A DNA stretch of 64,000 bases from positions 588 through 64,587 of the forward strand of contig JBGSZB010000011.1 in the NCBI GenBank assembly GCA_041750555.1, in the 5' to 3' direction. Origin of the DNA: Candidatus Dojkabacteria bacterium (lineage in GTDB: Bacteria > Patescibacteriota > Dojkabacteria > J137). Below are positions 3,491 to 60,024 of this stretch, piece after piece. The notes below the pieces were generated by a model, which made no database searches, had not been told where the DNA came from, and saw only the letters and a program-made list of their open reading frames with translations. Position numbers and translations under genes: made by a program. How positions within the stretch are numbered: position 1 is the stretch's first letter; each line of letters starts with the position of its first letter.

Positions 3491-3889
3491 CTATCTTGCT
3501 TTATATAACATGTCTATCCCTATAGCTACTACACTTGAGACAATTGTTAAATAAACTAAATTCAGAGTTTGCTCAGTTACTGTAACAATACCAATTAATT
3601 TAAAAATATCAGGAGTATTACCTGTAAAGGTAATTATCTCTAAGATTAAGCCAACAACTAGAAAATATATAAAACAAAAAATAGCACCTAAAAGTAATTC
3701 AGATGCATTATTTAGTGGAATCTTAAAAAATCTTAAAGTAAATGGAATTGCATAAATCATGACTCCAAATGCTAGAGCTAACATTAATTTATATATCAAT
3801 TCAGTTGGTAATAAAATACTACTACCAAATAATGTAGTAACTAAAAAAAAGACTGAAGTGTTCCTTAAAATTAAATACATTTCTTTCAT
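3491..3889 (-). CDS. Small polytopic membrane protein, function unknown
   Basis: 132 aa with about four hydrophobic segments. Overlaps ftsX by 4 bp, so probably co-transcribed. Confidence 0.4.
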   Translation of the reverse strand: MKEMYLILRNTSVFFLVTTLFGSSILLPTELIYKLMLALAFGVMIYAIPFTLRFFKIPLNNASELLLGAIFCFIYFLVVGLILEIITFTGNTPDIFKLIGIVTVTEQTLNLVYLTIVSSVVAIGIDMLYKAR

Positions 3890-4977
3890 CTTATATACCT
3901 TTTAATAGATAAAAAGCTACTAATAGAGCCAATTAAAAATCCAGTTACCGTACTTAGTAAAATTAACCCAACCCAACCTAATGTACTAACATATGGCCAA
4001 GGTAGATTACTAAAATTCTCATAAATAAATGTTGATAATACAGAGTTAGAATCTGCTACGAAAACTACAAATATAACACTCGCTATAAAAATTGATGAGA
4101 TAAAGGAACCAATTAACCCATAAAATCCACCCTCTAATATATATGGAGCTCTAATAAATGTAAGACTACCTCCAACTAATTGCATAACACCAATCTCCTC
4201 CATTTGATTGTAAAGCCTAAATTCTACAGTCATAAATGTAAAAAAGAATATAACAATAAATAATAGGGTAATAATAAATATTCCAGCAATCCTTACAGAA
4301 GTTAAAACCTCTCTTAATTGATCTAAGTTTTTATCATCAACTCTTAATTCTATTGGTGGTCTATTAGGATCTGTTTGATACTTGTATGTAAATTCTTCTA
4401 AAGATAAATCATCTTCCAAAGTTACATCTTCAGTAGTTACCTCTGTTGCGTTATCACCCTCCTCTGTTGGTGTTTCTTCTACAACCTCTGTATCACTTTC
4501 TTCTGTTTTAATAATCTTTAATAAACCCAACTCTTCATCAATACTTGATTGTATAGAATTTTTAACGCTTTCTAAATCAGATAAAGACCAAATTTGAATA
4601 TCTAAACTAGATGGTAATATCTTCTCCTCTTTTGTTTTTAAAATCTCATAAGTTTCAGGTAAAACTTTAGCTGTATAATCAGCATATTGCTCATAAGCTT
4701 GGGCTTCAGTTGTATATTCTATATCTTTAATTTTTGGATTACTCTTCCAAGTATCTCTTAATCTATCTACAACCTCTCTATCCATTCCTTCTTCAAAGAA
4801 AACTAATAAGTTACTTTTAGTTTCAATAAATTGAATATATAAATTAGAGATATATGCTAATCCTCCGAATATAATAGCAACTAAAAATGCTAATGTCATA
4901 ACACTAACAGAAGCCCAACCTACCCAGCCACTTCTTTTAATTTGTTTTAGTGAGTTCGCTAATATTCTTCTAAACAT
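3886..4977 (-). CDS. ftsX: Cell-division permease-like protein FtsX
   Basis: N-terminus MFRRILANSLKQIKRSGWVGWASVSVMTLAFLV is typical of FtsX. It has a large extracytoplasmic loop carrying an acidic E/T/D-rich insert and C-terminal TM helices, and sits immediately downstream of ftsE. Confidence 0.75.
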   Translation of the reverse strand: MFRRILANSLKQIKRSGWVGWASVSVMTLAFLVAIIFGGLAYISNLYIQFIETKSNLLVFFEEGMDREVVDRLRDTWKSNPKIKDIEYTTEAQAYEQYADYTAKVLPETYEILKTKEEKILPSSLDIQIWSLSDLESVKNSIQSSIDEELGLLKIIKTEESDTEVVEETPTEEGDNATEVTTEDVTLEDDLSLEEFTYKYQTDPNRPPIELRVDDKNLDQLREVLTSVRIAGIFIITLLFIVIFFFTFMTVEFRLYNQMEEIGVMQLVGGSLTFIRAPYILEGGFYGLIGSFISSIFIASVIFVVFVADSNSVLSTFIYENFSNLPWPYVSTLGWVGLILLSTVTGFLIGSISSFLSIKRYIR

Positions 4978-4991
4978 AATTTATTATATAA

Positions 4992-6353
4992 CTATTTCTT
5001 TAACTTTTTTATAGACTTAGAAATTAATTTAATCTCCCCTTTATCAATTATCATATCCTCATTTAATTTTTCAGGACCAGCTCTTAAAATATCACCTACA
5101 TTTTTATATCCATTAGCTTTTAAATCACTCTTAATATTTTTAGGTAAATCTAACTTATCTACACTTAACTCACCTACTTCATTTAAAAACTTTTCGTCTT
5201 CAACTTCTGCCTCATCCTTAACTTTCTTAGCATTATCCTTTTCTTTAGAAGCCTTATCATTAGATTTACTTTCATTTTCAGTTTCATTATCGTTTTCATT
5301 TTCTTTAACTACTTCATTTTTTTCTTCACCTTCATCTATTAGATCTTCAACATTTTCTATAACATCTTTTTTTGATTCAACAGGTATTTTTACTTTATCT
5401 TCTTCACTATATATCTCATCATAACTCTTATCTAATACATCAGTTATTTTTTCCTTTTTATCTGATCTTCTTAAAAATCCAAAGAATCTTCTTTTTTCAG
5501 GTTCTTTAATATCTTCAACAATCTCACTAACCTGGGTTTCTTCTGGTAAATTATCTTCTAAATCATTTATTTTAAATTTAAAACTCTTTTTCTCATTATT
5601 TTTCTTACTCTTTTTCTTTGTATCCTTTGGAGATTCTTCGTTATCTAAAACTAACTTTTCAAAGTTCTTAGATACCATTTCGTACTGTCCTTTATTATCA
5701 TCTCTAATAATCTTACCTCCCTCCATTTGAATAACTCTTTTATTTAGAGAGTTAACAATATCGGTTCCATGAGTAGACATAATTACTGTAGTACCCCAAT
5801 TATTAATTTTAGTTAAAACTTGAACAATATCCCAAGCACTTGCAGGATCTAAGTTACCTGTTGGTTCATCAGCTATTAATATCTTTGGATTATTTGAAAT
5901 AGCTCTAGCAATTGCTACTCTTTGTTGTTCTCCACCTGATAACTGTCTTGGAAACGAATTTAATCTATTAGAAAGACCTACAATATCTAAAACATAGGGA
6001 ACAGTTTCTTTAATCTCTTTAGTTGTTTTACCTGCAGCTTCCATTGCAAATGCTACATTTTCAAAAGCAGTTTTATCTGGAATTAATTTAAAATCTTGAA
6101 ATATTACACCTATCTCTCTTCTTAATTTATATACCTTTCTTCTATTAATTTTTGTTATATCAACCTCATCAAAAAATATCCTTCCGCTTGATGGAAGTTC
6201 ATCTCTAATTAACATTTTAATTACTGTAGTTTTACCACTTCCAGATGGACCTATCAAAAAAAGAAATTCTCCTTCATTAATTGTAAAGTTTACATTATCT
6301 ACTGCAGTTATATTTCCATCATACACTTTAGAAACATTATTAAACTCAACCAT
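4992..6353 (-). CDS. ftsE: Cell-division ABC ATPase FtsE, fused to a ~220-aa Lys/Glu/Asp-rich linker and a C-terminal helix-hairpin-helix (RpoA alpha-CTD-like) domain
   Basis: Residues 1-225 carry Walker [10 protein letters not shown], the ABC signature [14 protein letters not shown] and Walker [13 protein letters not shown]. The C-terminus ...[32 protein letters not shown]...[14 protein letters not shown] aligns by eye with the RpoA alpha-CTD HhH fold. Confidence 0.8.
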
Positions 6354-8379
6354 GCTTTTTTCTATAATTCTTAAAAATTTTTGTCTTAAAAGTATACTTG
6401 CTTTTTAAATTCTTTAACAGTCTAAAATTTATCCTTTTAGTTACACTCTTTTTATATTTAATTAACAGCGTTATTAAAAGAATTAATATAACTAGTATAA
6501 GTATTACTTTATACAAATCTTTATTTACATAAATATTTAAATTAATTAACCCATTACTTTCAAAGTTTTCAGATTTAATTACGTAATTTAAATTAGTATT
6601 GTTTGTATCTATTAAAAATATTCCTGGATTAATTTCTCCATTAACCTCTACCTCTGATAGTGGTGGAATTATTAAATTAGTGTCATTAATCACTTCCTCC
6701 ACATTGTAACTGTTATTTGATATTAAAATATCTTTTGGATAAAAAAAGAAATTATTTGGGTTATATATTCTTAAACCTAAATAGTTGGATACTCCAGATT
6801 GTAGAGATATATTAGAATCTATACTTAAACTCAATGTTTTTAAGTTATTTGAGCTTTCATTAACTTCACTAACTTCGTTTATGTCACTTAAAGTATTTAC
6901 ATCATTTTTTCTAAATTTAGAAATTATTGGAGAAGATATATCACTTCTTAATCCTAAAAACCCTGAGTTACTATCAAGGGACCACATTCCATAAGTTATT
7001 CTATCTCTAGAATCCTTCATAAAGTATGTTAAAAGATTAACCTCTTCTAAGAGTGGATCTAATATATATTCAGTGTTATCTAACTTAAATTCACACCAAA
7101 CATGAGGAGTAGATGTTTCATTTAATAAATATCCATAAACTATTCTAAAAGGAATATTAAATTCTTTAGCAAAGCTTCCAATTATGTAACAGTATTCAAA
7201 AGAATTAAATTTATCACTTTCACTTAACTTCTCCCATATTAAATTAACACTTTCATTACTTATAACTTCATTTAAATTAGGGCTTAATTTGTTCTTTAAG
7301 TACTCATTAACAGCTCTTAACTTCTCTAATGGGGTATTTACTACCTCTACAAACTCCAAAGCCTCTAAATAGAAGTTTTTAGATTTATCAATATTAAATT
7401 CATTGTTAAATACATTAAAACTCTCTTTTTCTATTCTGCTATTAAAATATTTAACATTATTTGTATTATTTAAATTACTCTCACTCTCTAGAATATTTGC
7501 ACCATTAGAATATATATTCATTTCAAAATTAAATTCAGTATCTGATTTAGGTATTAATACATAGTTATTTAAATACTTATCATTAAAAGCATAACTTAGT
7601 GTTGGAGAATTAAGATATTCAAATGTAAAATCTCTTTCAAATGGCAAATTAAAAAGTAAGTATGAATTTAAATTTATAATACCAATCTCATTTTCTAATA
7701 TATCCTCTTCTGTATTTTCACTAATATTTAAATCATTATTAACCCCAATCTTAAAATTTGAATAAACATTATCTATCTCTCCCCATAATATTTTTAATGC
7801 ACCATTACTAGATCCGCTTATACTATTCCCAATTGAATTGTAATCATTGGAATATACTGTTAAGTTATTACCAAAACTCACGGGATAAGTAATATTAAAT
7901 TTAAAGCTTTGTAGAGAAAAATCATTTTCATAGTATGGGAAGTAAAATTGTTTTAAAGAAAAAAACTCTTTAACTAAAGATTTAGTATCAAATTCAATAT
8001 TAAGTATTGGATCTAAATTAAATATTGATAATTTATCTTTTAAACTAATTAATAAACTAGTGGTATTACCCTCAACCTCTTTATTAAAGTTAAACTCTCC
8101 AAAAGTATTATCTACCTTTAAGTTTTCAATATCTTTAAAGGGGAATACTACTCTAACCGATTCAAATACCTTAGTATCTGTTACATTAATATAGCTGATA
8201 TTTAGTTTAAAGTTAGAATTTAAATTCTCATCAATTGTAATATCTATACTACTATCACTGTTTGCTAGTGCCTTAACTTTATTTATTTTAAAGTTTAATA
8301 ACAGTGTTATTGAAATTAATAACAGTATAGTAATTAGTAATATTTTAAATTTATTAAGCTTTATAGTTTTAAACCCCAT
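6346..8379 (-). CDS. Transglutaminase-like (Cys-His-Asp) domain surface protein with N-terminal signal/anchor and C-terminal TM plus basic tail
   Basis: 677 aa. The core EYCYIIGSFAKEFNIPFRIVYGY...TPHVWCEFKLDNTEYILDP matches the transglutaminase-like cysteine protease Cys/His/Asp arrangement. There is a hydrophobic N-terminus and a C-terminal TM followed by a K/R-rich tail. Confidence 0.5.
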   Translation of the reverse strand: MGFKTIKLNKFKILLITILLLISITLLLNFKINKVKALANSDSSIDITIDENLNSNFKLNISYINVTDTKVFESVRVVFPFKDIENLKVDNTFGEFNFNKEVEGNTTSLLISLKDKLSIFNLDPILNIEFDTKSLVKEFFSLKQFYFPYYENDFSLQSFKFNITYPVSFGNNLTVYSNDYNSIGNSISGSSNGALKILWGEIDNVYSNFKIGVNNDLNISENTEEDILENEIGIINLNSYLLFNLPFERDFTFEYLNSPTLSYAFNDKYLNNYVLIPKSDTEFNFEMNIYSNGANILESESNLNNTNNVKYFNSRIEKESFNVFNNEFNIDKSKNFYLEALEFVEVVNTPLEKLRAVNEYLKNKLSPNLNEVISNESVNLIWEKLSESDKFNSFEYCYIIGSFAKEFNIPFRIVYGYLLNETSTPHVWCEFKLDNTEYILDPLLEEVNLLTYFMKDSRDRITYGMWSLDSNSGFLGLRSDISSPIISKFRKNDVNTLSDINEVSEVNESSNNLKTLSLSIDSNISLQSGVSNYLGLRIYNPNNFFFYPKDILISNNSYNVEEVINDTNLIIPPLSEVEVNGEINPGIFLIDTNNTNLNYVIKSENFESNGLINLNIYVNKDLYKVILILVILILLITLLIKYKKSVTKRINFRLLKNLKSKYTFKTKIFKNYRKKHG

Positions 8380-14104: not shown

Positions 14105-15646
14105 CTACTTTTTCTTGGTTAATCTATTCTCTACCTTGTTTTCAAAGTTTTTTAAGGATCTATGTTTTTTATCTCTTTTCTTTTCTTTTCTTTTAAGATC
14201 TCTATCAATAGAGACATATTCTCCAAATAGTTTTAATGATTTTTGTGTTAAATCATATTTATAGAAGAGTATTCCAAGTATTATCGCTATAAAGCCTAAT
14301 GCTATTCTGTTATCTCTATCGTTATCAAATAATGCAGTTTCTGGTAATTCTCCAGGACATACTCCACCTAGTGCATCTTCACATTCACCTGCAGTTACTG
14401 TTGATCCTGCTGGACAACTATCATCTGTTGTTACAAATGATTCACATGTATTACCATCACTTAAACTGGTTGTACATCTATAGCATGTTAAGTTTTGTGA
14501 TGTTGTTACAGGACATGCTCCACCAACACTTTCTTCACAAGCTGATTGAGTTGTACTTCCTGCTGGACATACACTTCCATTTACACTAAATGATTCACAT
14601 TGATCATTATCACTTAATGTATCAGTACATTTATAACAGGTTGTAGTTACACTTTGTACAGGACACGCCCCACCAACAGCTTGAGAACATACTGAATTAG
14701 TTGTATATCCACTAGGACAACTACTTCCATTAATAGTAATACTTTCACAAGTGTTTACATCATCAACTCTATCAGTACATTTATAACAGGTTACTGTATC
14801 TGTAGGTGTTGTTGGAGGGTTACTTGTATCTTGACAATTATTATTATTAGCAGGGTCTCCAATATGACTACAATAGTTTGTACCAGCTCTAGCATCTGCA
14901 TCACTTGGATAGAAATCAACTTGGGCACATCCATTAGGTAAAACACAACCACTACCACTTGAGAAAGTTACACTTGCTCCTTCATCTGCTAGGGTACATT
15001 GATCATCTCCATTTGAATCAAAACTACATTTATATATTGCACAGTAATTACAAGTGGTAGTTGCACCTCCACAAGTTACTCCATTTGCAACATTTGCTCC
15101 ACTTCCTGCGCTACATACAGGATTAGTTGGGCATGTACAACCATCAACATCACTACATGTTGATGTACAACTACTTAATGATGTTCTTGAACCGTCACCT
15201 GTTGTTCCTGATGGACATGATGTATCATATTTACAACCCTTTGAAGTATTATCTCCCGTAGCTGTATTACATCTATACTCCATTCTTTGACCAGTTGGAC
15301 ACCCTTCTCCGCAAGCACCTGAAAAGTCAACACCTTGAGGGCACTTAGTTGTCTGAGTTTCAGTAGGACATTCAGAAGTATTGTACTCGGCACAATTAAC
15401 CACACTACCTCCAGTTACAGCAACACACTTACATACATAGCCTGTTCTATAGCTACCCCCATTTATTGGATGACTTGTATATTGACACTTTCTTCCATAT
15501 GATGCTGGATCACAAGTCTCTGCACTACTATCATCTGGAGCTTGATCTTGAGTTAGTCTTACAGCTATAAATACAGCTACACCACTAAGTATTAATAATA
15601 CTATTACTAATATAATTGAAATTAATCTTTTTCTATTAGGGTTCAT
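14105..15646 (-). CDS. Cysteine-rich cell-surface protein with three ~45-aa Cys repeats and a C-terminal LPETA sorting signal (putative sortase substrate)
   Basis: 513 aa. N-terminal signal/anchor, then a Cys/Thr/Gly/Ser-rich ectodomain with three tandem repeats TCYKCTD..D.C(E)S...NGS.CP.G.TT.S.C....GGACPV. The C-terminus is LPETA, about 10 residues, a hydrophobic helix and a long K/R-rich tail. Confidence 0.6.
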   Translation of the reverse strand: MNPNRKRLISIILVIVLLILSGVAVFIAVRLTQDQAPDDSSAETCDPASYGRKCQYTSHPINGGSYRTGYVCKCVAVTGGSVVNCAEYNTSECPTETQTTKCPQGVDFSGACGEGCPTGQRMEYRCNTATGDNTSKGCKYDTSCPSGTTGDGSRTSLSSCTSTCSDVDGCTCPTNPVCSAGSGANVANGVTCGGATTTCNYCAIYKCSFDSNGDDQCTLADEGASVTFSSGSGCVLPNGCAQVDFYPSDADARAGTNYCSHIGDPANNNNCQDTSNPPTTPTDTVTCYKCTDRVDDVNTCESITINGSSCPSGYTTNSVCSQAVGGACPVQSVTTTCYKCTDTLSDNDQCESFSVNGSVCPAGSTTQSACEESVGGACPVTTSQNLTCYRCTTSLSDGNTCESFVTTDDSCPAGSTVTAGECEDALGGVCPGELPETALFDNDRDNRIALGFIAIILGILFYKYDLTQKSLKLFGEYVSIDRDLKRKEKKRDKKHRSLKNFENKVENRLTKKK

Positions 15647-17001
15647 TTCCTTTTAAATATATCTACTCTGAAGTATAAAGATAATCCTAAGAATATCAAG
15701 AGTATCCCTACAATAATTGCATCTACTCTATCATTAATAATTGCAGTACCAGGTAGTGAGCCACAATCTGCAGGACATGTAATATTAGATTCACTACTAC
15801 CACATATTCCATCTCCACAAACAACAGATGTACCACTTCCAACAACAGTATTTTGACCACAAGCATCTAATAACAAATTAACATTAGTTACTCTACTTCC
15901 AGTACTAGTAGTTAAAAACACAGTATCAATATCTCCACATTGAGATAGTGTATATCCTCCTTGAGGAGCTAATGGTAAACATCTTTGATTAGTAGTATAT
16001 GCTTGTGATAAACAAGACTCTGCACTTACATTATTTGTATTAGGTAGTAAGAAACCACATGTAGAACCAGTTTGACATAATCCAACTTCATCACTACAAG
16101 GAGCTCCACAAGCATTTAAACTTCCACAAGCACAATTAGCTCCTGGAACTGTTTTACCACTAGGACATGCTGCATTTTCACACATACCATTCCTACAGGT
16201 AACTTCAATCCCTGCTGTAGCTGCTGGTTTACAATCTGCAACTGTAGTACATTTACCACCACATACAGATCTAGAATCTACTGTTGTACCACCTCCAGTA
16301 CTACCTTGTATAGCACAACATAAATCTCCACTACTTGAACAACTTCCACTTCCAGTAACTCTACCTACTGATCCACAATTGTTAACGGTTACCCCATTAT
16401 ATGTAGACCCAGGTGTAAAACATGCCCCACTACATGAACCACCTCCACTCGTTGATGTTCCACCACAAGTTACTCCATTATTAATATTTCCACTTGTATT
16501 ACAACCACTAGGACATGTACATCCATCACTATCATTACATGTTGCTGTACAACTAGTTAATGTTGTTCTACCTGATGTACCACCTCCTGTATTAGTAGGA
16601 ACACAACAGACCTTCACCGAACCTTCCTCACAATCTGTACCAGTTAAAGAAGTTTCATTTGTATTACATGCTGATTTACACGATCCACTAAATCCACCGC
16701 AATTCGTAAGAGTACCCTGACACGAGCAAATATAATTTGAGCCTGAAAGACCACCCTTGCAAATTCCTAAGGCACCACTATCTGTAGTACATGTACCACT
16801 TCCAGGAATTTTTCCACCACAACCATTAAATGAAAGTGTAGTTGAACATATTTCAAAACCGGCTCCAGGCTCTTCATCTGCACTACTATCCGTTGGAGAT
16901 TGTTGTAAAGTAACCTGATATGCTACATAAATAGCTATACCACCTAAGATAAGGGTTGCAAATACTAAAATACCTACAATTACATTTCTTCTATTCTTCA
17001 T
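15643..17001 (-). CDS. Cysteine/glycine/threonine-rich cell-surface protein, paralog of the downstream gene, C-terminal LPGTA sorting signal
   Basis: 452 aa. Its N-terminal anchor is homologous to that of the neighbouring protein (…VTLQQSPTDSSADE vs …LTQDQAPDDSSAE). It is extremely Cys/Gly/Thr/Ser rich. C-terminus is ...SLPGTAIINDRVDAIIVGILLIFLGLSLYFRVDIFKRK. Overlaps the downstream paralog by 4 bp. Confidence 0.6.
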   Translation of the reverse strand: MKNRRNVIVGILVFATLILGGIAIYVAYQVTLQQSPTDSSADEEPGAGFEICSTTLSFNGCGGKIPGSGTCTTDSGALGICKGGLSGSNYICSCQGTLTNCGGFSGSCKSACNTNETSLTGTDCEEGSVKVCCVPTNTGGGTSGRTTLTSCTATCNDSDGCTCPSGCNTSGNINNGVTCGGTSTSGGGSCSGACFTPGSTYNGVTVNNCGSVGRVTGSGSCSSSGDLCCAIQGSTGGGTTVDSRSVCGGKCTTVADCKPAATAGIEVTCRNGMCENAACPSGKTVPGANCACGSLNACGAPCSDEVGLCQTGSTCGFLLPNTNNVSAESCLSQAYTTNQRCLPLAPQGGYTLSQCGDIDTVFLTTSTGSRVTNVNLLLDACGQNTVVGSGTSVVCGDGICGSSESNITCPADCGSLPGTAIINDRVDAIIVGILLIFLGLSLYFRVDIFKRK

Positions 17002-19489: not shown

Positions 19490-19535
19490 ATCTATATATT
19501 TTAACTAATGGATTATATCAAAAAGGAGAGTTATT

Positions 19536-19618
19536 TACTGCGGGAGGGAGTCGAACCCTCACGACCTTAAGGCCAACGGATTTTAAGTCCGTCGTGTATA
19601 CCATTCCACCACCGCAGC
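19536..19618 (-). tRNA. tRNA-Leu (anticodon TAA), class II with long variable arm; CCA not encoded
   Basis: Reverse-complement reads GCTGCGGTGGTGGAATGGTATACACGACGGACTTAAAATCCGTTGGCCTTAAGGTCGTGAGGGTTCGACTCCCTCCCGCAGTA. The 7-bp acceptor stem has a G1-U72 pair, the anticodon loop is CTTAAAA and the discriminator is A73. Confidence 0.85.
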
Positions 19619-19665
19619 AACGTTTATGAATTATACTTAAAAGTAGTTAATTAGAAAAGAGCAAA

Positions 19666-22945: not shown

Positions 22946-23698
22946 TTATTCAAAAAGAATAAATAAATACATAACAGCTATACCAAGAATAAAACTTAAT
23001 ATCCTTAAGATATATTTAAAACTATTACTCTCCCTATGTATTTCTGGAACTAAATTTACTAATGCAATATATATAAATTGACCAGCTGCGAATGGTATTA
23101 AAAATGTTGATACACCATCAACTAATTCGTTAAGTAAAAATGTTATTACTACACCTATCATTGCCGTTAAACCAACTAAGAGATTTGCAATTAATACCTT
23201 TTTCTTATCCCACCCGCTATATATTAAAATACCTGCATCTGCTAATTCTTGAGGTATTTCATGCAATACTACAGCAATAGTTGTAGCTACTCCAACTGCA
23301 GGACTTACAATAAAAGATGTAGCAATTGCTATTCCATCTAAAATATTATGTACACTATCTCCTACTAAATTAATTTTAGCTAATTTCTTATTATGTTTAT
23401 GAGTAGTATGATCATCTTCTAATTCATGATGATGTTGATGAATAGTTGATTCAACAATTAACATAAATATTATTCCTAAGAATAAAGAAATCATAATATC
23501 TATACTAAATCCAAATTCTTCTATAGATTCCCCTAATAAATGAAAGAATGAATCTCCAAGTAATGTACCTGCTGCAAATGAAACTAATAGAGATATTATT
23601 AAAGATTTAGAACTAATCTTTCTAAAAAATAACAGAACTCCAATTAATGATATAAGACTAACTATTAGTGAAGCTAATAAACTATTTAGTAATTCCAT
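22946..23698 (-). CDS. zupT: ZIP-family zinc transporter ZupT
   Basis: 250 aa with about eight TM helices, a His-rich loop (HQHHHELEDDHTTHKH) and the ZIP signature HEIPQELADAGIL. Confidence 0.8.
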   Translation of the reverse strand: MELLNSLLASLIVSLISLIGVLLFFRKISSKSLIISLLVSFAAGTLLGDSFFHLLGESIEEFGFSIDIMISLFLGIIFMLIVESTIHQHHHELEDDHTTHKHNKKLAKINLVGDSVHNILDGIAIATSFIVSPAVGVATTIAVVLHEIPQELADAGILIYSGWDKKKVLIANLLVGLTAMIGVVITFLLNELVDGVSTFLIPFAAGQFIYIALVNLVPEIHRESNSFKYILRILSFILGIAVMYLFILFE

Positions 23699-23714
23699 AA
23701 ATGACTATTAAAAT

Positions 23715-24218
23715 TTAAAATATTTGCTTAATTAAATGAATTGTTTGAAATTCATCTTTTGATTCGTAGACTATTTCAAATCCCATTGAAACCCAGTATT
23801 CTAATGAACCAGGAATATTCCTTTGGGTATGTAAGTATATATAACTGTATCCTTTTCTTTTTGCGAATGACTCAATTTTTTTAAACATCTTTCTTCCTAA
23901 ACCTTTTCGCCTTAAAGATTTTAGAATATAATGTCTCCACAACGAAATAGTACTATCTCCGTTAAACACTTCTGGATCTAAAAATTCATAGTTTCTATCA
24001 TATGGTCTAGCTGCAATTGTACCAACTATAGTATTTTTATCTTTTAATACTAAAAATAGTTTTTTTTCACCTATGTAGAAGTTATTAACATCATCGATAT
24101 CTTTATGCCAGACAGGATTATATTTATATCCAAAGTCAGCTTCTAAAACACCGAAAATAAAATTTCTTACTTGTGGAATATCAAATTCTTCTAATTTTAC
24201 AATTTTTAGCTTATTCAT
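23715..24218 (-). CDS. GNAT-family N-acetyltransferase
   Basis: 167 aa with the acetyl-CoA-binding motif LRRKGLGRKMFKKIESFAKRKGYSYIYL. Overlaps the upstream NAS-like gene by 8 bp. Confidence 0.6.
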   Translation of the reverse strand: MNKLKIVKLEEFDIPQVRNFIFGVLEADFGYKYNPVWHKDIDDVNNFYIGEKKLFLVLKDKNTIVGTIAARPYDRNYEFLDPEVFNGDSTISLWRHYILKSLRRKGLGRKMFKKIESFAKRKGYSYIYLHTQRNIPGSLEYWVSMGFEIVYESKDEFQTIHLIKQIF

Positions 24219-24972
24219 TTCTTAAGATAACTGCTGAATTAACTACATCATTAAAAGGATCAACTCTAAGTATTGGCTTAAAGATTTTGAATATTGAACT
24301 ACTTAAAGGCCTATATAATATTCTCCTATTACCCCAGCTAGATCTAGCAACTATATGTGTTCCCGACTTAGAGGTAGCTTTAATTCTTAAGAAAATCTTT
24401 CTTTTTGTTGAAGAATTTAAGCCTGCCAATGCTGCAACAAATACTGTATTGTAATCTTTATAGTTAAATCTTTCACCACTTGATTTAATAATTTTAATAC
24501 TACTATCTAAATCTAGCTGTTTAATTAACTTTTCGGATAGGTTAACAGCATCCTCGTCCATGTCTATAATTGTTGATTTGATATTATGATAAAGAGATAG
24601 AACAATTGCAGTCATGGGGAGTGGACCACCTCCGATAAATACAACTTCATGATTATCATGTTTAGAGCACCCCATTAAAGTAAATATTTCTAATTTTGTT
24701 AAATCAATATAATTCTTTATATAAGGGAATTTTTTAAACTCTTCTATTGAGTTATTAGAGGAAATTATTCTAAGTGACCAATATTTTTCAAGCTCATATT
24801 CTGCCTTTGCAGATAGAATCTGCAATCTTGATATTTCATACCTTGTCAGCTTAGCATCTAAAGAATACTTAACCGATTTTTCTACAAGTTGAGTAAATAA
24901 TTCGTTTACTTCAGTGCTTGGAGTAAAATCCTTCAATTCCTCAATCTTTTTATATAATTCTCTTATTGTCAT
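24211..24972 (-). CDS. Nicotianamine synthase-like (NAS/CntL-family) aminobutyryl transferase
   Basis: 253 aa. Motifs VVFIGGGPLPMTAIVLS, FVAALAGLN, RSSWGNRRILYRP and NDVVNSAVI correspond to the plant and archaeal NAS signatures VAFVGSGPLPLTSIVLA, FLAALVGM, RSAHGxRxFLYP and DDVINSVV. Confidence 0.7.
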   Translation of the reverse strand: MTIRELYKKIEELKDFTPSTEVNELFTQLVEKSVKYSLDAKLTRYEISRLQILSAKAEYELEKYWSLRIISSNNSIEEFKKFPYIKNYIDLTKLEIFTLMGCSKHDNHEVVFIGGGPLPMTAIVLSLYHNIKSTIIDMDEDAVNLSEKLIKQLDLDSSIKIIKSSGERFNYKDYNTVFVAALAGLNSSTKRKIFLRIKATSKSGTHIVARSSWGNRRILYRPLSSSIFKIFKPILRVDPFNDVVNSAVILRNE

Positions 24973-26350: not shown

Positions 26351-26668
26351 TTAGGATTCTTCTTGAACTTTTAAATACAATACGTCTAGAGTGAGACAAT
26401 GTGGTTTACCAAAAGGTTTAGGGATTTCATGGGTATATACTCCCATACTAAGAACCCCTCTTGCAATTAATTCATCAATTAATCTAAGTACTCTTCCCTC
26501 ACTTAAGAATCTATTTTTAACACACTCAACAATTAACCAACTCTTAGTAACATAGTTTAAACCAGTAGAAGATGTATATGGAATAATTACCTCATTTAAT
26601 AAAAAGGAGATATCTCTTTCAATATCACTTTCTCTTCTCTCTATATATTTATCTATAATATTAGTCAT
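26351..26668 (-). CDS. Hypothetical protein (downstream partner of the 378-aa ORF)
   Basis: 105 aa. The upstream ORF's stop overlaps this ORF's start codon in an ATGA junction. Confidence 0.35.
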   Translation of the reverse strand: MTNIIDKYIERRESDIERDISFLLNEVIIPYTSSTGLNYVTKSWLIVECVKNRFLSEGRVLRLIDELIARGVLSMGVYTHEIPKPFGKPHCLTLDVLYLKVQEES

Positions 26669-27801
26669 ACTTCACAAAATAATGGGTGTTGATAAATAAA
26701 ATTTACTAATTCTACATCAATATTTGGATTATATACCCCTGAAACATCTTTACCACTTTTTAATCTATTATAGTAATCTCTACTGTTATTCATAATATCC
26801 ATAAGTAATGATAAACATTTTATTGCTTCAAATTGATCTACAAATACAGGTATTGGTTTTACTTCATTACCTATAAAGTATCTATAAGTTACATTAGATT
26901 CATTTTCATTTACTGGTAAGTGAGCTAATAAATCAAAAATATCATTAACTTCAATTTTAATATATTGTGCTTTACCCACTTTAATATTTTTCCTTAAAGA
27001 TAATATTTTTGTAACTATAGTTAATAGTACTATCTGTAATTTTTCATATATATTAAACTCTTTTGGATTAGTAAATTTATCATCTATACATTTAGAAGTT
27101 TTATCTCTATCAAGTTCTTTAGAATGTATAAAGCTATCTAATCTAATATATATTCTTAATTCCTTACCTCCAACACATAAATGAAGTATTACAGGCATTT
27201 CTAAATGAACATCACAACCAGATAATTCTTCTAATATTGCAGATCTATCTTCTACCTTTTTTAACAAAGATCTTTCTCTTAAACCCCTACGGGCAGTTTT
27301 CCACATCTCTTTTAATTTATCTAGCGATATTTCATTAGTTATGAAACTAGTTTGTCCATTAGCATTTAAATGATTACTAAACTCATTTAATCTAAACCAT
27401 TCTTCAAAAGCTATCTCTACTAAATCAGAAACTCTGGTATCAGGATTTTGTATTAGTGGTAAATATATACTCACGAATTCTTTAAAAAACTTTTTTAATT
27501 TATCATCATAAATTGGTATATCCTTTAGGGGATATTTGTAATCACCCCTATTTTTAATTAAAAACAATACTTTATACAGATAAAGTAACATATGACCCTG
27601 TACACCTCTAAAGGATCCATATAGTTTTTCAATATCATCTTCAGTTAAAAGAGATCTCTCTATTCCTTCATCTAATTCTCTAATAGCTTCAATACTACTT
27701 AAAGATATTAGAACAGATTTATCTCTTAGTGTTTCAACGCTAGTTACCTCATCTACTCTAGAAAATAGTGAGGATTGTCTTGTATATAATAGATGTGCCA
27801 T
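26665..27801 (-). CDS. Hypothetical protein
   Basis: 378 aa, soluble, no recognisable motif. Translationally coupled to the 105-aa ORF downstream. Confidence 0.4.
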   Translation of the reverse strand: MAHLLYTRQSSLFSRVDEVTSVETLRDKSVLISLSSIEAIRELDEGIERSLLTEDDIEKLYGSFRGVQGHMLLYLYKVLFLIKNRGDYKYPLKDIPIYDDKLKKFFKEFVSIYLPLIQNPDTRVSDLVEIAFEEWFRLNEFSNHLNANGQTSFITNEISLDKLKEMWKTARRGLRERSLLKKVEDRSAILEELSGCDVHLEMPVILHLCVGGKELRIYIRLDSFIHSKELDRDKTSKCIDDKFTNPKEFNIYEKLQIVLLTIVTKILSLRKNIKVGKAQYIKIEVNDIFDLLAHLPVNENESNVTYRYFIGNEVKPIPVFVDQFEAIKCLSLLMDIMNNSRDYYNRLKSGKDVSGVYNPNIDVELVNFIYQHPLFCEV

Positions 27802-27928: not shown

Positions 27929-28005
27929 TGGCGGGATGGAAGGGGATCGAACCCTCAACCTTTCGCGTGACAGGCGAATGCTCTAACCAGTTGAGCTACC
28001 ACCCC
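27929..28005 (-). tRNA. tRNA-Asp (anticodon GTC), CCA encoded
   Basis: Reverse-complement reads GGGGTGGTAGCTCAACTGGTTAGAGCATTCGCCTGTCACGCGAAAGGTTGAGGGTTCGATCCCCTTCCATCCCGCCA. The anticodon loop is CTGTCAC, the discriminator is G73, and a 3' CCA follows. Confidence 0.9.
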
Positions 28006-28632: not shown

Positions 28633-28688
28633 AATTAAAGTATATCAAATATTTATTGAATATATATATCGGGGTATAATTAAAAATT

Positions 28689-28770
28689 GCTGATGTGGCG
28701 GAATTGGTATACGCGCTAGCTTGAGGTGTTAGTCCCGTAAGGGGTGCAGGTTCGAGTCCTGTCATCAGCA
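28689..28770 (+). tRNA. tRNA-Leu (anticodon GAG), class II; CCA not encoded
   Basis: GCTGATGTGGCGGAATTGGTATACGCGCTAGCTTGAGGTGTTAGTCCCGTAAGGGGTGCAGGTTCGAGTCCTGTCATCAGCA, with anticodon loop TTGAGGT, a long variable arm and A73. A TATAAT-like -10 element sits about 10 nt upstream. Confidence 0.85.
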
Positions 28771-28779
28771 AAAATCAGA

Positions 28780-30009
28780 TTAATAATATATTGAAGAATT
28801 CTTTAGGGTAATATGCAGTTCAATTAGTCCTGGGACCCACTTTCCATCCTCTAATATCCAACATAAGTCAAATTGCAATTCACAGATATCTCCTATAATT
28901 TTATTCGCAGAAGTAAGACTAGATGCATAATGATGAAAGCCATCGGCTAAAGATTCATTTAATTGGCTCCAAAATTCTTCTTTCATTTCTGGTGTAAAAT
29001 TATTTATTCTAAAAAACTCATCAAACATCTTATCAGCATCTATAGTGTAACCCTTTTCAGGATCTGCTAAATACGTTAAGTTACCAAAATAAGATGATCC
29101 ACCAACTTTAGTATACAGATTTTGTATTCTAGATATCTCTGGTACTTGTAGGTTACCTTCTATTACATGTCTAGTTTCAAAAGTATGACCGTCCAAATAA
29201 AAAATATTTTCAAATCTCTTTTCTATCATCCCAGGATCAATAGACAATCCTTTTGCTTTTTGTGCTGGTCCACTATAGTCAAAGTCTAAAAAATGAATTG
29301 AGGATATGGCACTTAATAAAAATATCTCTTCAAGTGCTCCTCTAGCTAGCGCAATAGGAATCCTATATTTTTCTACATTCGTGTTTTCATCCTTTGTTTT
29401 TGACAAGGTATAAGGTTCATCAATATCTAAATCTCCAGTTGAGGATCTGTCTCTAAAGAATTTGATTAAGGGAGGTAAATGTCTTGGATTATCTACATAA
29501 TTATTTATCATAGTTAACACCAAGTCTTGACCATCTCTTTCTAAGAAAAAGATTCCAATTCCAAGAGCACTATATGCTGGTTTAAACACTAAGGGTAATT
29601 CTATCCGACTATCTAATATTTTTTCAACAATAACTTTAATATCTAAGGCTTCTTGCTCTATTGTTTCATATAAACTTAATTTATTATTAACTGAGAAATC
29701 GTCTAAATCCTCTGGAAGTCTTTGCGACTCTTGGGATCTTTGTAAATAATCTAAATATCTTCTAAAGGTACTATCTTCATATCCTATAGGGTAAAAATAT
29801 TGTGGTTGTCTAAATGGCCCCCCTTTCATTATATGACGCCCTACATATTTATTACTTAAAAATTCATTTACAGACCTTCTTAAGTCAACTAAGTTAATTT
29901 CCCTCCTCCAATCAACAACCCTTATTCCCCTATAAATACGAATACTTTCTGCAGTATCTCTTCTAATAACAGGTAGTGTAGCTTCTAAGATATTTTTTGG
30001 CTGATTCAT
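28780..30009 (-). CDS. Hypothetical protein, possibly ATP-grasp-like
   Basis: 409 aa. The segment ELPLVFKPAYSALGIGIFFLER is loosely reminiscent of the ATP-grasp (RimK-like) K-P...G..G.G motif. Codons appear more G/C-rich than in neighbours. Its stop is 10 nt from the tRNA-Leu 3' end. Confidence 0.35.
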   Translation of the reverse strand: MNQPKNILEATLPVIRRDTAESIRIYRGIRVVDWRREINLVDLRRSVNEFLSNKYVGRHIMKGGPFRQPQYFYPIGYEDSTFRRYLDYLQRSQESQRLPEDLDDFSVNNKLSLYETIEQEALDIKVIVEKILDSRIELPLVFKPAYSALGIGIFFLERDGQDLVLTMINNYVDNPRHLPPLIKFFRDRSSTGDLDIDEPYTLSKTKDENTNVEKYRIPIALARGALEEIFLLSAISSIHFLDFDYSGPAQKAKGLSIDPGMIEKRFENIFYLDGHTFETRHVIEGNLQVPEISRIQNLYTKVGGSSYFGNLTYLADPEKGYTIDADKMFDEFFRINNFTPEMKEEFWSQLNESLADGFHHYASSLTSANKIIGDICELQFDLCWILEDGKWVPGLIELHITLKNSSIYY

Positions 30010-35320: not shown

Positions 35321-36763
35321 TTATTGTTCATTTATTCTTAAAAATTCAGCTGAGTTACTAGAGAATGCAACATATGATTTATCTCTATCATAGTCATATA
35401 CAACGCCTGATGCAGTTGATGACAAATTCAGTTCTCCTCTTATGGTTAAGTCTGATGGGTCAGAAATATTAATCGTTGTAAATTCTCTTGGACCTGAGTC
35501 AAGAGCCAGGAAAGCAATAGTTCCTGTAGGGTTAATATCTATATCGTTAACATCATCATCAACATCTAGACTATCTAAAAACGTAGGAGAAAGAGGATTT
35601 GTTACATCAATAGAATATATAATTTCATCCTCACAACCTAAGTAAACCGTATTTGAATAATATGCTACAGTTAAACAATTAGAATTCCCTGGCTTGTCAT
35701 ATGATGCTACTTCGTTTGGATTAGCCTTATCACTTACATCATAAACTACCAGTTCCTCTGAATTACTCGAAGTGGAAACATACGCATAATTTCCACTTAC
35801 AACTACTTCATACATTGTTCCCCCAGAATAATTATCTGAACCAATAAATGTTGGTGCAATGTTTGGGTTATTAACTTGAACGATAAAAAATTCATCACCA
35901 CCACCTGCCGAAGATCTTACAAAATATACATAGTTTGAAGAATCAATAAAAACTCCATTTGCATCATGATTACTACTAGCATTGTAAGTAGATGACATAG
36001 TTGGGTTAGATGGACTAGATAAATTAAATATTTGTAGCTCTGAAGAATTACTACTAGATGCAATAGCTCCAAAGTTTCCATTAGGAGATACTGCAATATT
36101 TATTGGTGCAGAAGTTATCGTTTGAGAATTAGTTACACTTAAAGCTCCATCAACATCAATTGTTAAAAAATTAGGAGATCCTCCATTTCTAATAATATAT
36201 GAATAATCATTAATATATGTAATCTTAGTTCCCCCTCCATTATTTAATAAATTAAAACTATCTGCTAGGGTTGGATTTGTCCAATAATCTAAAATTACTG
36301 TTCTTAACCAATTAGTAAAATAACTAGATATTACTACACTATTATTTGCACTAAAAAACGATGGCCAAGTTACAGTTGAAGTAACTAACTTAGTTTCAGA
36401 ATCAACTGTTGAAATATCAACACTTCTAACATACTCTCCATTTAAATCAGATGATCCACTAGTTACCCAATTACTTCCTGCTAAACTTAATCCATAACTA
36501 CCATCTGTTAAGTTTGAATAATCAATATCTCTAATACTTCTAATTGCTTCTAATCCCTCTTCAGCTAAAAATATAGCCCCTGTCCTATAACTACTTAATT
36601 CTGAATTTTGAATAGATACAACTAGTCCTGAAGCTAAACCTAAACTCACTATTCCAAATAGTGAAATTGATAATATTACTTCAACTAAAGAAAATCCTTT
36701 TTTATTTCTTCTTACTTTTTTTAAGTTTAATCCTTTTAGAATTTTTAAAACTTTAATTCTCAT
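35321..36763 (-). CDS. Prepilin fused to an LVIVD-repeat beta-propeller domain (candidate pilus-tip adhesin)
   Basis: 480 aa. N-terminus ...RRNKKG|FSLVEVILSISLFGIVSLGLASG carries the class III signal with Glu+5. The C-terminal ~350 aa contain repeated ...SGNYAYVSTSSNSEELVVYDVSDKANP..., ...VYLGCEDEIIYSIDVTNPLSP..., ...IAFLALDSGPREFTTINISDPSDL... blocks matching the LVIVD repeat consensus. Confidence 0.6.
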   Translation of the reverse strand: MRIKVLKILKGLNLKKVRRNKKGFSLVEVILSISLFGIVSLGLASGLVVSIQNSELSSYRTGAIFLAEEGLEAIRSIRDIDYSNLTDGSYGLSLAGSNWVTSGSSDLNGEYVRSVDISTVDSETKLVTSTVTWPSFFSANNSVVISSYFTNWLRTVILDYWTNPTLADSFNLLNNGGGTKITYINDYSYIIRNGGSPNFLTIDVDGALSVTNSQTITSAPINIAVSPNGNFGAIASSSNSSELQIFNLSSPSNPTMSSTYNASSNHDANGVFIDSSNYVYFVRSSAGGGDEFFIVQVNNPNIAPTFIGSDNYSGGTMYEVVVSGNYAYVSTSSNSEELVVYDVSDKANPNEVASYDKPGNSNCLTVAYYSNTVYLGCEDEIIYSIDVTNPLSPTFLDSLDVDDDVNDIDINPTGTIAFLALDSGPREFTTINISDPSDLTIRGELNLSSTASGVVYDYDRDKSYVAFSSNSAEFLRINEQ

Positions 36764-36802
36764 TATTTAATATACTTATCTATTAACTCTATAAATTTTC
36801 AA

Positions 36803-37225
36803 TTAATAATCAACAATACCTAATGAATTAATTGTAATAACATCACTATTTACCTCTCCATTAACATTAATAGTTGCACTTGTATTTGGAATACCACTAA
36901 ATTTAACAAAATTAACTTCATTATTACCACTAAAGGATACTCCATCAAAAGAATATACTTGATCAAGAGTTACATCCCTTGATACATAATCATTCCCACT
37001 ATAAATTGTTACACTGTTTCCACTAAGATATACTCCCCAATTAGAATCATTTTTTTGTGATCGAGCCAAAATATTTGCACTTCTAATTGAAGTAATTGTA
37101 AGGGTTGTTGCATTCTCTACTTCAGATCTATATAGAAAGGAATTAAAAAATGGTACTGAGAATCCAGCTATTATGGAAACTAATGCAATTGATAACAATA
37201 CTTCTACTAGTGTAAATCCTTTCAT
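36803..37225 (-). CDS. Type IV minor pilin / pseudopilin
   Basis: N-terminus MKG|FTLVEVLLSIALVSIIAGFSVPFF. 140 aa. Confidence 0.65.
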   Translation of the reverse strand: MKGFTLVEVLLSIALVSIIAGFSVPFFNSFLYRSEVENATTLTITSIRSANILARSQKNDSNWGVYLSGNSVTIYSGNDYVSRDVTLDQVYSFDGVSFSGNNEVNFVKFSGIPNTSATINVNGEVNSDVITINSLGIVDY

Positions 37226-37239
37226 ATTTTATTTACTAA

Positions 37240-38391
37240 TTAATTAGTTTGAACAGTTCTACCTCTTGCTGCATCATTTATATTTCCAACTAAATTATAT
37301 ATTGGAAGAATAATAGATAGGGCTACAAATGCTACTCCTAACCATACAATAATTAGTAATATAGGTTCTATTAAAACACTTAAGTTCTTTAAAGTATTCT
37401 CATTTTTTAATTCATAAACCTCCCCTATCTTTGAAAGAGATTTACTTAGTGACCCAGATTTCTCTGAAGAAATTAATAACTGTCTAGAGTAAGGTGGTAA
37501 GACATGCCCTATATATTTATATTTATCAACAATCTGACTAAAGGTATACCCCATTTCTAATTGAGATTTCATAAACTCATAAAAAACTTTATACCTTTTA
37601 TACACAGTTGAAGATATTAATAAATCCATAGCATTTAATAATGGATAACCAGTTTGTAATAGAGAACCTAATAAAAATCCAAATCTAGCTACTTCTACTT
37701 CTGTTAACATTCTTCCTAATAGTGGAATTCTAAACATAATTTCTTGACCAATGTGTTTACTTCTTTTAAATATAAAGAGAAAAAAGTATATAATTCCAAA
37801 AACAATAAAGATTAGTGGAATAACTATACCCCCATATGCATCTAGAAAATCTCCTAAACTAATTAATGCTTTAGTAACCCCTGGTAATTCAATGTTTAAT
37901 CCTTTATACACTGATGTTATTCTAGGTAATACAAAAAGTATCATTGAAAACCCTACAATAAAGATTAGTATTAAAACTAATACAGGATACAGACTAGCTG
38001 ATCTTATCTTGTTTTTAAACTCTCTCTCCTTTTGCATTTGAGATAAAACTATTAATGTATTTTCTTTAAGTTTTCCACTTCTTTCTCCAATTTGAATTAC
38101 AGATAAAAGATGACTAGGTAAAAGGTTTACTCTTTCTATACTTTTCCAAATACTACTTCCATCTTTAATATCTTTTTCTATTGATTCAACTGTATGTTGT
38201 AAACTTTTAGAAGATGATTCTGCTTTTAATACTTGAAGAGATGAAGATATATCTAAATCTGATGAAATAATTAAACCAAAATTCTCAAAAAATATCTCTT
38301 TTTCTTTTTGAGTTAACCTTTGTTTAAATAGAAACTCTAATATTTTATTTCTCTTTTTGATAGCCATAGATTTTTCTAGAATCAACTTCAC
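37240..38391 (-). CDS. pilC: Type IV pilus / type II secretion platform protein PilC/ComGB (GspF family)
   Basis: 383 aa with two T2SSF-like repeats and three TM segments. Directly downstream of the PilB-like ATPase; the annotated start overlaps pilB, so the true start may be an internal Met. Confidence 0.8.
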   Translation of the reverse strand: MKLILEKSMAIKKRNKILEFLFKQRLTQKEKEIFFENFGLIISSDLDISSSLQVLKAESSSKSLQHTVESIEKDIKDGSSIWKSIERVNLLPSHLLSVIQIGERSGKLKENTLIVLSQMQKEREFKNKIRSASLYPVLVLILIFIVGFSMILFVLPRITSVYKGLNIELPGVTKALISLGDFLDAYGGIVIPLIFIVFGIIYFFLFIFKRSKHIGQEIMFRIPLLGRMLTEVEVARFGFLLGSLLQTGYPLLNAMDLLISSTVYKRYKVFYEFMKSQLEMGYTFSQIVDKYKYIGHVLPPYSRQLLISSEKSGSLSKSLSKIGEVYELKNENTLKNLSVLIEPILLIIVWLGVAFVALSIILPIYNLVGNINDAARGRTVQTN

Positions 38392-58988: not shown

Positions 58989-59636
58989 ATGTATCTAATT
59001 TTACTAATTTCAATCCTATTAATATTTATCCAATTAACTATTGCCCTTTATGCATGGAGTTTAAAACCCTCTATTGTTAGGAAATATAAAAATATCATAA
59101 GTAGTCAATTAGATCCCTCCCTTGTATTAGAGAAATATAGTAAGAAATTTAAAAATATAACAATTAGAGTTAATAACGCTCTTGATGATGTAGCTTTTAG
59201 TGAAAAGGGTTATGTAATGTTTAGACAGAAATCGTTGTATAAAAAGGATTTATATACTAACTTTATGTCACTTTATTATCTATATTTATCTCAGAATAGA
59301 TACTATAGGTTATCTAAAATTAATTATTTACCTAATTTATTATTTCCACTTCAAATTATTACTCTTATTGCGGGATTAGTTACAACTTTTGAATTAATTA
59401 ATCCATTTATTATCTTAACCTTTGTTATTCAGATATTTTTATTACTTTTATCTTTAGTTAATTTTTATACTTTAAATAGCTTTTTAAATAAGTTACATAA
59501 AGATGCAACTAAGATATTAGAGTTAGATGATTTAGAAGAGGAACGAGCTAAGTCGTTAAAAAGTGATTTGAGTTATAGAGTATTTGAATACCCCTACGAA
59601 ATTATTTGGAGAGTAATACAGTTTATTAAGCCTTAA
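58989..59636 (+). CDS. Hypothetical membrane protein
   Basis: 215 aa with several TM helices. Confidence 0.35.
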   Translation: MYLILLISILLIFIQLTIALYAWSLKPSIVRKYKNIISSQLDPSLVLEKYSKKFKNITIRVNNALDDVAFSEKGYVMFRQKSLYKKDLYTNFMSLYYLYLSQNRYYRLSKINYLPNLLFPLQIITLIAGLVTTFELINPFIILTFVIQIFLLLLSLVNFYTLNSFLNKLHKDATKILELDDLEEERAKSLKSDLSYRVFEYPYEIIWRVIQFIKP

Positions 59637-59639
59637 ATT

Positions 59640-60024
59640 TAGTCCATTCAATAAGCCGGATTCTGTTACTATTTCTAGTATGAGAATTATTTATCTAAGC
59701 CCTAATTATATTAGGTTGCTCCAGCTAGGGGTTACAAGCATTCTATTATTACTAATAGAACCGGTGGTCTCTTACACTTATTCCTCTAATTCCAATTGGT
59801 TGATAGAGGACACCTTTTCACCATTGCACTTACAATGTAAGTAAGCTGTAATATTTCTGTTGCCCTTTTATCCCTAAGATTACTCCCAGCCAGTCATTAA
59901 TATTGCTATTAATTACGTGGTAGCTATTTCGTTTTTAAAAGATCTAAAGTACGAAACCAAAACGGAGTCCGGACTTTCCTCTATATTAATTTCTTAATAC
60001 AGCAATTCTCTTGAATGGACTCTC
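59640..60024 (-). ncRNA. rnpB: RNase P RNA (bacterial type A), ~385 nt
   Basis: Minus-strand sequence contains GAGGAAAGUCCGGACUC (P4 5' strand; plus 59965-59981), GGUGAAAAGGUG (plus 59817-59837), GUAAGAGACCACCGG (plus 59758-59775) and ACAGAAUCCGGCUUAU (P4 3' strand; plus 59651-59666). A P1 helix pairs 60011-60021 with 59641-59651. The interval is ORF-free and GC-elevated. The ends are approximate. Confidence 0.75.

Follow-up and report, generated by a model that had tools for sequence, protein, structure and literature searches.

FtsEX, a conserved switch, links the Z-ring in the cytoplasm to the hydrolysis of the cell wall on the outer side of the membrane, and FtsE is expected to localise at the division site and to control a cell-wall hydrolase. 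How FtsE connects to its partners in the cytoplasm is understood for a few model species only. We analysed the ftsE locus in a 64,000-nucleotide stretch of DNA from a Candidatus Dojkabacteria bacterium (contig JBGSZB010000011.1, positions 588 to 64,587; hereafter the window), where the ATPase is extended by a long C-terminal tail ending in a small folded domain. The gene is one uninterrupted open reading frame (ORF) with an ATG start (Table 1), lies in DNA of about 26% GC, and had no rival of at least 50 aa in any other frame over the same interval in the ORF list of the window. Residues 1-213 matched TIGR02673, the FtsE equivalog, with 270.3 bits (curated cutoff 264.85; model positions 1-213 of 214), and the ORF matched the ATP-binding cassette (ABC) family PF00005 (ABC_tran) with an E-value of 2.6e-36. 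The translation contains Walker A (GPSGSGKT), the Q-loop (Q86), the signature (LSGGEQQR), Walker B (ILIADEPT) and the H-loop (STHG), at positions invariant across 103 aligned homologues. Residues 1-225 were modelled by AlphaFold2 with a predicted local distance difference test score (pLDDT) above 90. Because the equivalog match exceeds its cutoff and is joined by the ABC_tran match, all catalytic motifs and an adjacent ftsX, the assignment of the N-terminal half to the FtsE of an FtsEX pair is secure at the sequence level.

The tail after residue 225 comprises 228 aa, which makes the protein twice as long as canonical FtsE and places it outside the single-domain range of about 220-230 aa. A sequence-only reading of this DNA had set the canonical length at about 225 aa and described the present protein as extended and the fusion as unusual. 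Both statements held for bacteria at large. As controls we used FtsE loci from a scan of species-representative genomes with the full protein, which returned mostly canonical FtsE of other taxa; it gave 80 loci, and the ORF was recovered for 62. In 55 of these 62 the protein ended at most 6 residues after the ATPase domain, among them representatives of Saccharibacteria, Parcubacteria/Paceibacterota, Liptonbacteria, Azambacteria, Kaiserbacteria, Taylorbacteria and many Firmicutes. Long tails occurred in just two control loci, both from Candidatus Dojkabacteria (186 and 287 aa), and a hidden Markov model (HMM) of the tail domain matched only these two. Within the lineage the picture was reversed. 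Most of the 120 best matches to the whole protein in a collection of 5.8 billion proteins were 400-520 aa long, and a local iterated HMM found the terminal domain in frame in 106 of them, so that the orthologues do carry the extension, a check that the earlier reading had proposed. Source names among these homologues were few, namely Dojkabacteria and one record labelled Doudnabacteria; their assemblies came from NCBI, JGI, ENA and Logan, and some contigs exceeded 1 Mb. Tailed FtsE is thus unusual in bacteria at large and the norm within the Dojkabacteria lineage.

Table 1. Features of the ftsE locus and of the remaining window (positions in the window; residues refer to the FtsE protein)
Feature	Position	Strand	Residues or length	Basis
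ftsE ORF	4992..6353	-	453 aa	ORF list, translation
FtsE ABC ATPase domain	5679..6353	-	1-225	TIGR02673, PF00005, AlphaFold2, motifs from the translation
Disordered, net-acidic K/E/D/N-rich linker holding motifs A and B	5229..5636	-	~240-375	AlphaFold2, composition, conservation
Motif A	5568..5597	-	253-262	Alignment columns, periodicity moment
Motif B	5454..5498	-	286-300	Alignment columns, pattern versus shuffle, helical moment
C-terminal alpha-CTD/Rad51-N-type (HhH)2 four-helix domain (see text)	4995..5165	-	397-453	Family HMM, PDB profile, Pfam, hhalign, AlphaFold2, Foldseek
ftsX, membrane partner of FtsE, 14 nt downstream of ftsE	3886..4977	-	363 aa	Pfam FtsX and FtsX_ECD; NCBIfam FtsX models, E 5e-33
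Transglutaminase-core membrane protein	6346..8379	-	677 aa	PF01841, 26 bits (cutoff 23)
Nicotianamine-synthase-like gene	22946..24972	-		PF03059, 163 bits
Type IV pilus set	35321..40021	-		
RNase P RNA, class A	59636..60022	-		112.5 bits
tRNA-Leu (TAA)	19535..19619			
tRNA-Asp (GTC)	27929..28005			
tRNA-Leu (GAG)	28688..28771			
Four ORFs without Pfam match at E <= 1e-5	14105..17001, 26665..27801, 28780..30009	-	513, 452, 378 and 409 aa	Pfam

The stretch between the ATPase and the terminal domain (residues 226-396) comprises 171 aa, of which 51% are charged (34 E, 32 K, 18 D and 15 N overall, net charge -16). The K/E/D/N-rich composition given in the earlier reading was therefore correct, and its length of about 190 aa has to be shortened to about 170 aa. 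In a full-length AlphaFold2 model built with the 103 aligned homologues, pLDDT was above 90 over residues 1-225, below 50 over 241-374 and above 90 again from about residue 390. By this profile the protein consists of two folded ends with a truly disordered spacer between them. Linker length and sequence varied widely among the homologues, and column conservation was low outside two short motifs. These motifs, evident from column statistics over the 103 sequences, show that the linker, described in the earlier reading as low-complexity sequence, is not featureless. Motif A, about 30 residues past the ATPase, consists of a basic run followed by alternating hydrophobic and basic residues (consensus K-K-x-[FIY]-K-[VLI]-[KNS]-[LIM]). 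Its occupancy was 1.0 in the 103 sequences, with K255 conserved in 85, F/I/Y258 in 92 and K259 in 78 of them, and it occurred in all four clades of the family, including one without the terminal domain. The alternation looks strand-like, and the strand-periodicity moment (0.40) exceeded the helical one (0.19). Motif B has a basic-flanked amphipathic pattern, KKGFFxxLFxRKK, which appears in relatives as KGFFTNIFGG, RGLFAKFFGG or GIFSRLKR. Its hydrophobic residues at 290, 293, 294 and 297 follow an i, i+3, i+4, i+7 spacing between K/R flanks (helical moment 0.49), and position 294 is Phe in 75 of 103 sequences. A HeliQuest-style lipid-binding discriminant was swamped by the lysine runs and was replaced by a comparison of the pattern with shuffled sequences. 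An acid-free, basic-flanked [FILM]xx[FILMV]F was found in 54 of the 103 linkers, against 1.6 expected from the shuffles, and always 48-90 residues past the ATPase (median 56).

The sequence-only reading had noted by eye that the protein end parallels the helix-hairpin-helix (HhH) fold of the C-terminal domain of the RNA polymerase alpha subunit (alpha-CTD). Profile comparisons and structure models agreed with this view. The terminal-domain family was reached through the full-length protein search and an exhaustive profile search, the latter yielding 650 representatives at E <= 1e-3. Neither the tail domain by itself nor its alignment gave any match in word-indexed homology searches. The family HMM detected the domain in the window ORF with an E-value of 4e-23 and found no other copy in the window. 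Taken alone, the query segment matched PF03118 (RNA_pol_A_CTD) below threshold (E 0.039, 14.1 bits, cutoff 23.8), and it weakly matched SAM_1 and the N-terminus of RadA as well. From 66 non-redundant domains of the family we built a profile (A1) and compared it with all PDB sequences. The best match was the N-terminal domain of RAD51C (8gj9, E 3.4e-8), followed by the alpha-CTD of Thermus (1doq, 2.3e-6), numerous RpoA chains from Thermus, plastids, Bacillus and others (2e-5 to 1e-3), and NusA AR2 (4.5e-4). When the 66 members were scanned individually against Pfam at E <= 1, PF03118 was the commonest hit (41 members, best 4.2e-8), ahead of RAD51D_N (PF21794, 29 members) and HHH_5 (11 members). 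Alignment of A1 by hhalign with an alpha-CTD-type alignment, composed of the E. coli sequence, the Thermus domain and the PF03118 repeats of the protein P0124, gave a probability of 96.8% and an E-value of 2.3e-10 over 54 columns.

AlphaFold2 with A1 as input produced a four-helix model with a pLDDT of 86. Foldseek matched this model in the PDB to the CTDs of RpoA from plastids, Thermus, Synechococcus, Bacillus and E. coli and to RAD51C N-domains, with weak SAM-domain matches in addition. The superposition on the alpha-CTDs reached template modelling (TM) scores of 0.75-0.85 and root-mean-square deviations of 1.2-1.6 A; the E-values were weak, as expected for 60 residues. By profile and model evidence the terminal domain shares its fold and superfamily with the (HhH)2 domains of the alpha-CTD/Rad51-N type. 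Across clades with different synteny the domain retained 20-77% identity and a confident fold. Gly occupies the A274 column of hairpin 1 in 95 of 102 members, and the G296 column of hairpin 2 in none of them. The profile also retrieved unrelated proteins with 3-12 tandem PF03118 repeats (P0124, P0125, P0128, P0133, P0136 and P0143), some of which combine Sigma70_r4, HARE-HTH or topoisomerase VI-B ATPase modules; a canonical helix of the R265/N268 type, such as LSVRIANNL, is retained in these repeats. A single profile thus recovers multi-repeat proteins besides the single-copy FtsE types. Alpha-CTD-like domains are evidently mobile modules that have been recruited several times, FtsE being one instance.

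The surface through which the alpha-CTD makes its contacts was examined by aligning the E. coli domain to the family HMM and tabulating 102 members. We take R265, N268, G296, K298 and S299 of E. coli to be the DNA-contact determinant, and T285-E286-V287 to be the activator-contact '287' region. At the R265 position the family has Glu in 37 members, Lys in 18 and Ser in 11, and Arg in none. The G296 position is Asp in 76 of 102, the K298 position Glu or Asp in 74, and the S299 position Glu or Asp in 99. The second hairpin thus usually reads D-P-E-E, the position of T285-E286-V287 is a near-invariant G-P-[ED], and the net charge of the domain core has a median of -4. As judged from this alignment, the face used by the alpha-CTD for DNA and activators is conserved in the family yet inverted in charge.

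The tailed ftsE stands in a cell-wall and division context. The order of genes, labelled from the ORF list, Pfam and comparison with the locus of a relative, is PNPase, a 191-aa membrane protein, MurJ, KsgA (opposite strand), the transglutaminase-core protein, FtsE and FtsX, followed by a 132-aa membrane protein, SecG, an SBP_bac_5 protein and MraZ. The locus of P0004 (59% identical) has the same order, with RsmH and an FtsI-type penicillin-binding protein after MraZ. The ftsE-ftsX order was the same in the relatives' loci L081-L085. Neither rpoA nor ftsZ was present in the window or in the loci of relatives that were examined. A sigma-70 promoter scan of the AT-rich DNA was uninformative, as it gave fewer matches than shuffled DNA. 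In FtsX, residues ~150-195 of the extracellular domain form an acidic T/E/D-rich low-complexity insertion (EESDTEVVEETPTEEGDNATEVTTEDVTLEDDLSLEE). The gene upstream of ftsE shares its last 8 nt with the start of ftsE and encodes a transglutaminase-core (papain-like) protein with membrane segments at its N- and C-terminus. One orthologue immediately precedes ftsE in L081 (E 4e-42), and another is encoded close to it in L083 (E 2e-30). By analogy with RipC and CwlO, the NlpC/P60 hydrolases that are partners of FtsEX, this protein is a candidate for the cell-wall hydrolase that FtsEX may control in the lineage.

A second clade (P0083/P0120) has a different neighbourhood, consisting of GatCAB, the long FtsE, FtsX and an M23 peptidase, and carries the terminal domain plus an extra tail. 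The presence of the domain in clades with different neighbourhoods shows that the fusion is older than the split of the P0004-type and P0083/P0120 clades. In the long FtsE proteins of this clade (P0083, P0104, P0113 and P0120; genes at L084, 6001-7278, and L085, 6001-7290) the extra tail adds 30-95 residues of charged sequence after the HhH-like domain and ends in a conserved R-V-K-L-[DN]-L-T-G-K-K, which looks like a second copy of motif A. A third, P0061-like clade comprises proteins of 305-347 aa. There the gene is complete on a 31-kb contig, ftsX comes after it, motifs A and B are kept, and the terminal domain is absent.

Elsewhere in the window, the nicotianamine-synthase-like gene lies beside a GNAT acetyltransferase and a ZIP metal transporter. 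The region may be a cluster for metallophore synthesis and uptake, which would be unexpected in a reduced genome of the Candidate Phyla Radiation (CPR). The type IV pilus set includes a pilin-like protein with an N-methylation motif and an LVIVD repeat, a PilC-type T2SSF protein and a PilB-type T2SSE ATPase. An RNase P RNA, three tRNAs and four ORFs without a Pfam match are listed in Table 1.

FtsE of this lineage would work with FtsX as in other bacteria and would in addition use an acquired, lineage-specific cytoplasmic tail. We propose that the tail is a membrane-pinned flexible tether with a protein-docking head rather than a DNA tether, a reading to which we assign a probability of roughly 0.5. 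Motif B would lie on the inner leaflet of the membrane in the manner of the targeting helices of MinD and FtsA. The acidic disordered spacer, about 100 residues of it past motif B, would serve as the flexible tether and let the head sample a space tens of nanometres in radius. Through its conserved acidic surface at G-P-E and D-P-E-E the head would then capture a basic cytoplasmic partner. FtsEX would thereby gain a ZipA-like arm composed of anchor, flexible linker and binding head. In E. coli, FtsE binds the conserved FtsZ tail, FtsX contacts FtsA, and FtsEX recruits a hydrolase or activator (PMC7343993). Because FtsEX must couple to the FtsZ tail and FtsA there, Z-ring components would be the prime candidate partners and the most plausible targets of the arm. 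A bolder version holds that in Dojkabacteria FtsEX itself is the membrane tether and adaptor of the cytokinetic ring. The MinD-like helix would pin the tail, the charge-inverted head would capture a basic element of FtsZ, FtsA or another part of the divisome, and ZipA/SepF-type adaptors would be replaced. We regard this version as speculative and rather improbable.

Several observations weigh against the proposed tether. The view of motif B as a putative membrane-targeting sequence draws on its strong physicochemical resemblance to the targeting sequence of E. coli MinD (KKGFLKRLFGG), and the likeness is offered as an analogy. Motif B is also internal, about 60 residues past the ATPase, and not C-terminal. 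The P0061-like clade lost the terminal domain or never had it; because this clade keeps ftsX and motifs A and B, the domain is dispensable for core FtsE function. The partners of the head are candidates, and docking is argued from residue conservation. Finally, the acidic face is not uniform in the family. The query domain has a net charge of +5, including its KKLKK end, and the second hairpin is I-D-K-G/K-E in the query (IDKGE) and in the two relatives closest to it. The small clade of P0106 and P0118 (clade IV) alone keeps the canonical G-I-S-K-K hairpin. In view of the basic query domain and this retained hairpin, some members may bind DNA.

These last features lend themselves to another explanation, in which the HhH head binds the chromosome and couples FtsEX and septum hydrolysis to the position or segregation of the nucleoid. 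The superfamily includes many non-specific DNA binders (alpha-CTD, HHH_5, Hel308 domain 5, RadA/Rad51 N-terminal domains), and the linker contains polybasic runs. Weak support comes from canonical meningococcal FtsE, which a DNA overlay assay had recovered (PMC2885667). Such a role is nevertheless disfavoured for the family because the DNA-contact residues of the alpha-CTD have given way to others, chiefly acidic. The R265 position most often holds Glu and in no member Arg, the G296 position lacks Gly in all 102 sequences, and a head with a median charge of -4 on a linker of net charge -16 would repel DNA. We therefore consider a nucleoid tether unlikely. The earlier reading had proposed that the HhH could tether FtsEX either to DNA or to another HhH-binding partner; the first of these options has become the less likely one.

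A second explanation is that the tail regulates the ATPase itself, in the manner of the C-terminal regulatory domains of MalK and MetN. The head or motif A would dock on the FtsE dimer, or two tails would dimerise in a SAM-like manner, and ATP hydrolysis would be gated. Motif A is the most universally conserved element of the tail and lies close to the ATPase, the terminal fold weakly matches SAM domains, and the acidic head could pair with the basic motifs A and B of the same chain. A disordered spacer of about 130-170 residues is, however, unlike known rigid regulatory domains, and the full-length model showed no confident structure for motifs A and B. Intramolecular regulation thus appears doubtful. 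Far less credible is a largely neutral low-complexity expansion with the head as a functionless relic. The GC content of 26% in an AT-rich reduced genome, the variable linker and the one clade without the terminal domain would suit such a history, yet the head kept its identity and confident fold across clades of different synteny, and motifs A and B stand out as conserved within rapidly evolving surroundings. An assembly, frameshift or gene-calling artefact that joined ftsE to a separate small gene, for which A-runs in the linker DNA (where indels are common) and domain-only database entries of 97-160 aa might speak, is excluded for practical purposes because the in-frame architecture recurs in 106 homologues over many independent assemblies, including contigs above 1 Mb, in agreement with the single ORF free of competing frames, with linker DNA that holds trivial hexamer tandem repeats only and no repeat artefact, and with the short entries themselves, which include upstream linker sequence and look like truncated calls of the same gene.

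The membrane-pinned tether with a docking head bears on a group in which little is known of cytokinesis. The division machineries of CPR bacteria are minimal and poorly understood, and hardly any of these bacteria are in culture. A lineage-wide FtsE arm with a membrane motif, a disordered tether and a head of alpha-CTD fold would offer a concrete, testable handle on their division. If the proposal is true, an interaction domain of the RNA polymerase type was recruited to a wholly different machine and repurposed for cytokinesis. The two peptide-sized motifs and the one small domain are directly testable and should interest specialists in cell division and in CPR biology. No account of the architecture turned up in full-text searches on FtsE with an HhH or C-terminal extension, on FtsE or FtsEX in CPR/Patescibacteria and on division in Dojkabacteria. 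The fusion is already visible in databases through precomputed PF03118 annotations on three of the 120 homologues, and has apparently gone undiscussed.

Compared with canonical FtsE of E. coli, S. pneumoniae and M. tuberculosis, the protein shows a full equivalog match, the same ATPase motifs, an adjacent ftsX with FtsX_ECD and a cell-wall and division neighbourhood (MurJ and MraZ, with RsmH and FtsI in relatives). Canonical FtsE ends 0-6 residues past the ATPase, whereas the Dojkabacteria protein adds two motifs, a spacer of about 130 residues and a folded head. Other ABC ATPases, such as MalK, MetN and ModC, likewise carry an extra domain C-terminal to the nucleotide-binding domain. Their TOBE or ACT-like domains directly follow the ATPase and dimerise beneath it, whereas the FtsE head has another fold and lies past a disordered spacer.

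The head shares with the alpha-CTD of RpoA (PF03118) the four-helix (HhH)2 fold, homology at the profile level and attachment through a flexible linker. It differs in that it is not part of RpoA, in that the query scores below the Pfam cutoff, and in that the DNA-contact set is replaced, mostly by acidic residues; the FtsE linker is about ten times as long as the interdomain linker of alpha. The N-terminal domains of RAD51C and RAD51D (PF21794) and the HhH domains of archaeal RadA and Hel308 are similar as accessory helical domains on a P-loop ATPase, and the second hairpin of RAD51C is acidic and without glycine, as in the FtsE head. In RAD51C and RadA the domain is N-terminal and packed on the RecA-fold core, whereas in FtsE it is C-terminal and held by a long disordered linker, and no recombination context surrounds ftsE.

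Among membrane-associated division proteins, the targeting helices of MinD and FtsA resemble motif B in their basic-flanked i, i+3, i+4, i+7 hydrophobic pattern, an analogy limited by their C-terminal location, whereas the predicted helix of motif B is internal. ZipA has no sequence homology to the FtsE tail. The parallel with ZipA is a functional analogy only, and it consists in membrane attachment, a long flexible charged linker and a small cytoplasmic binding head at the division site.

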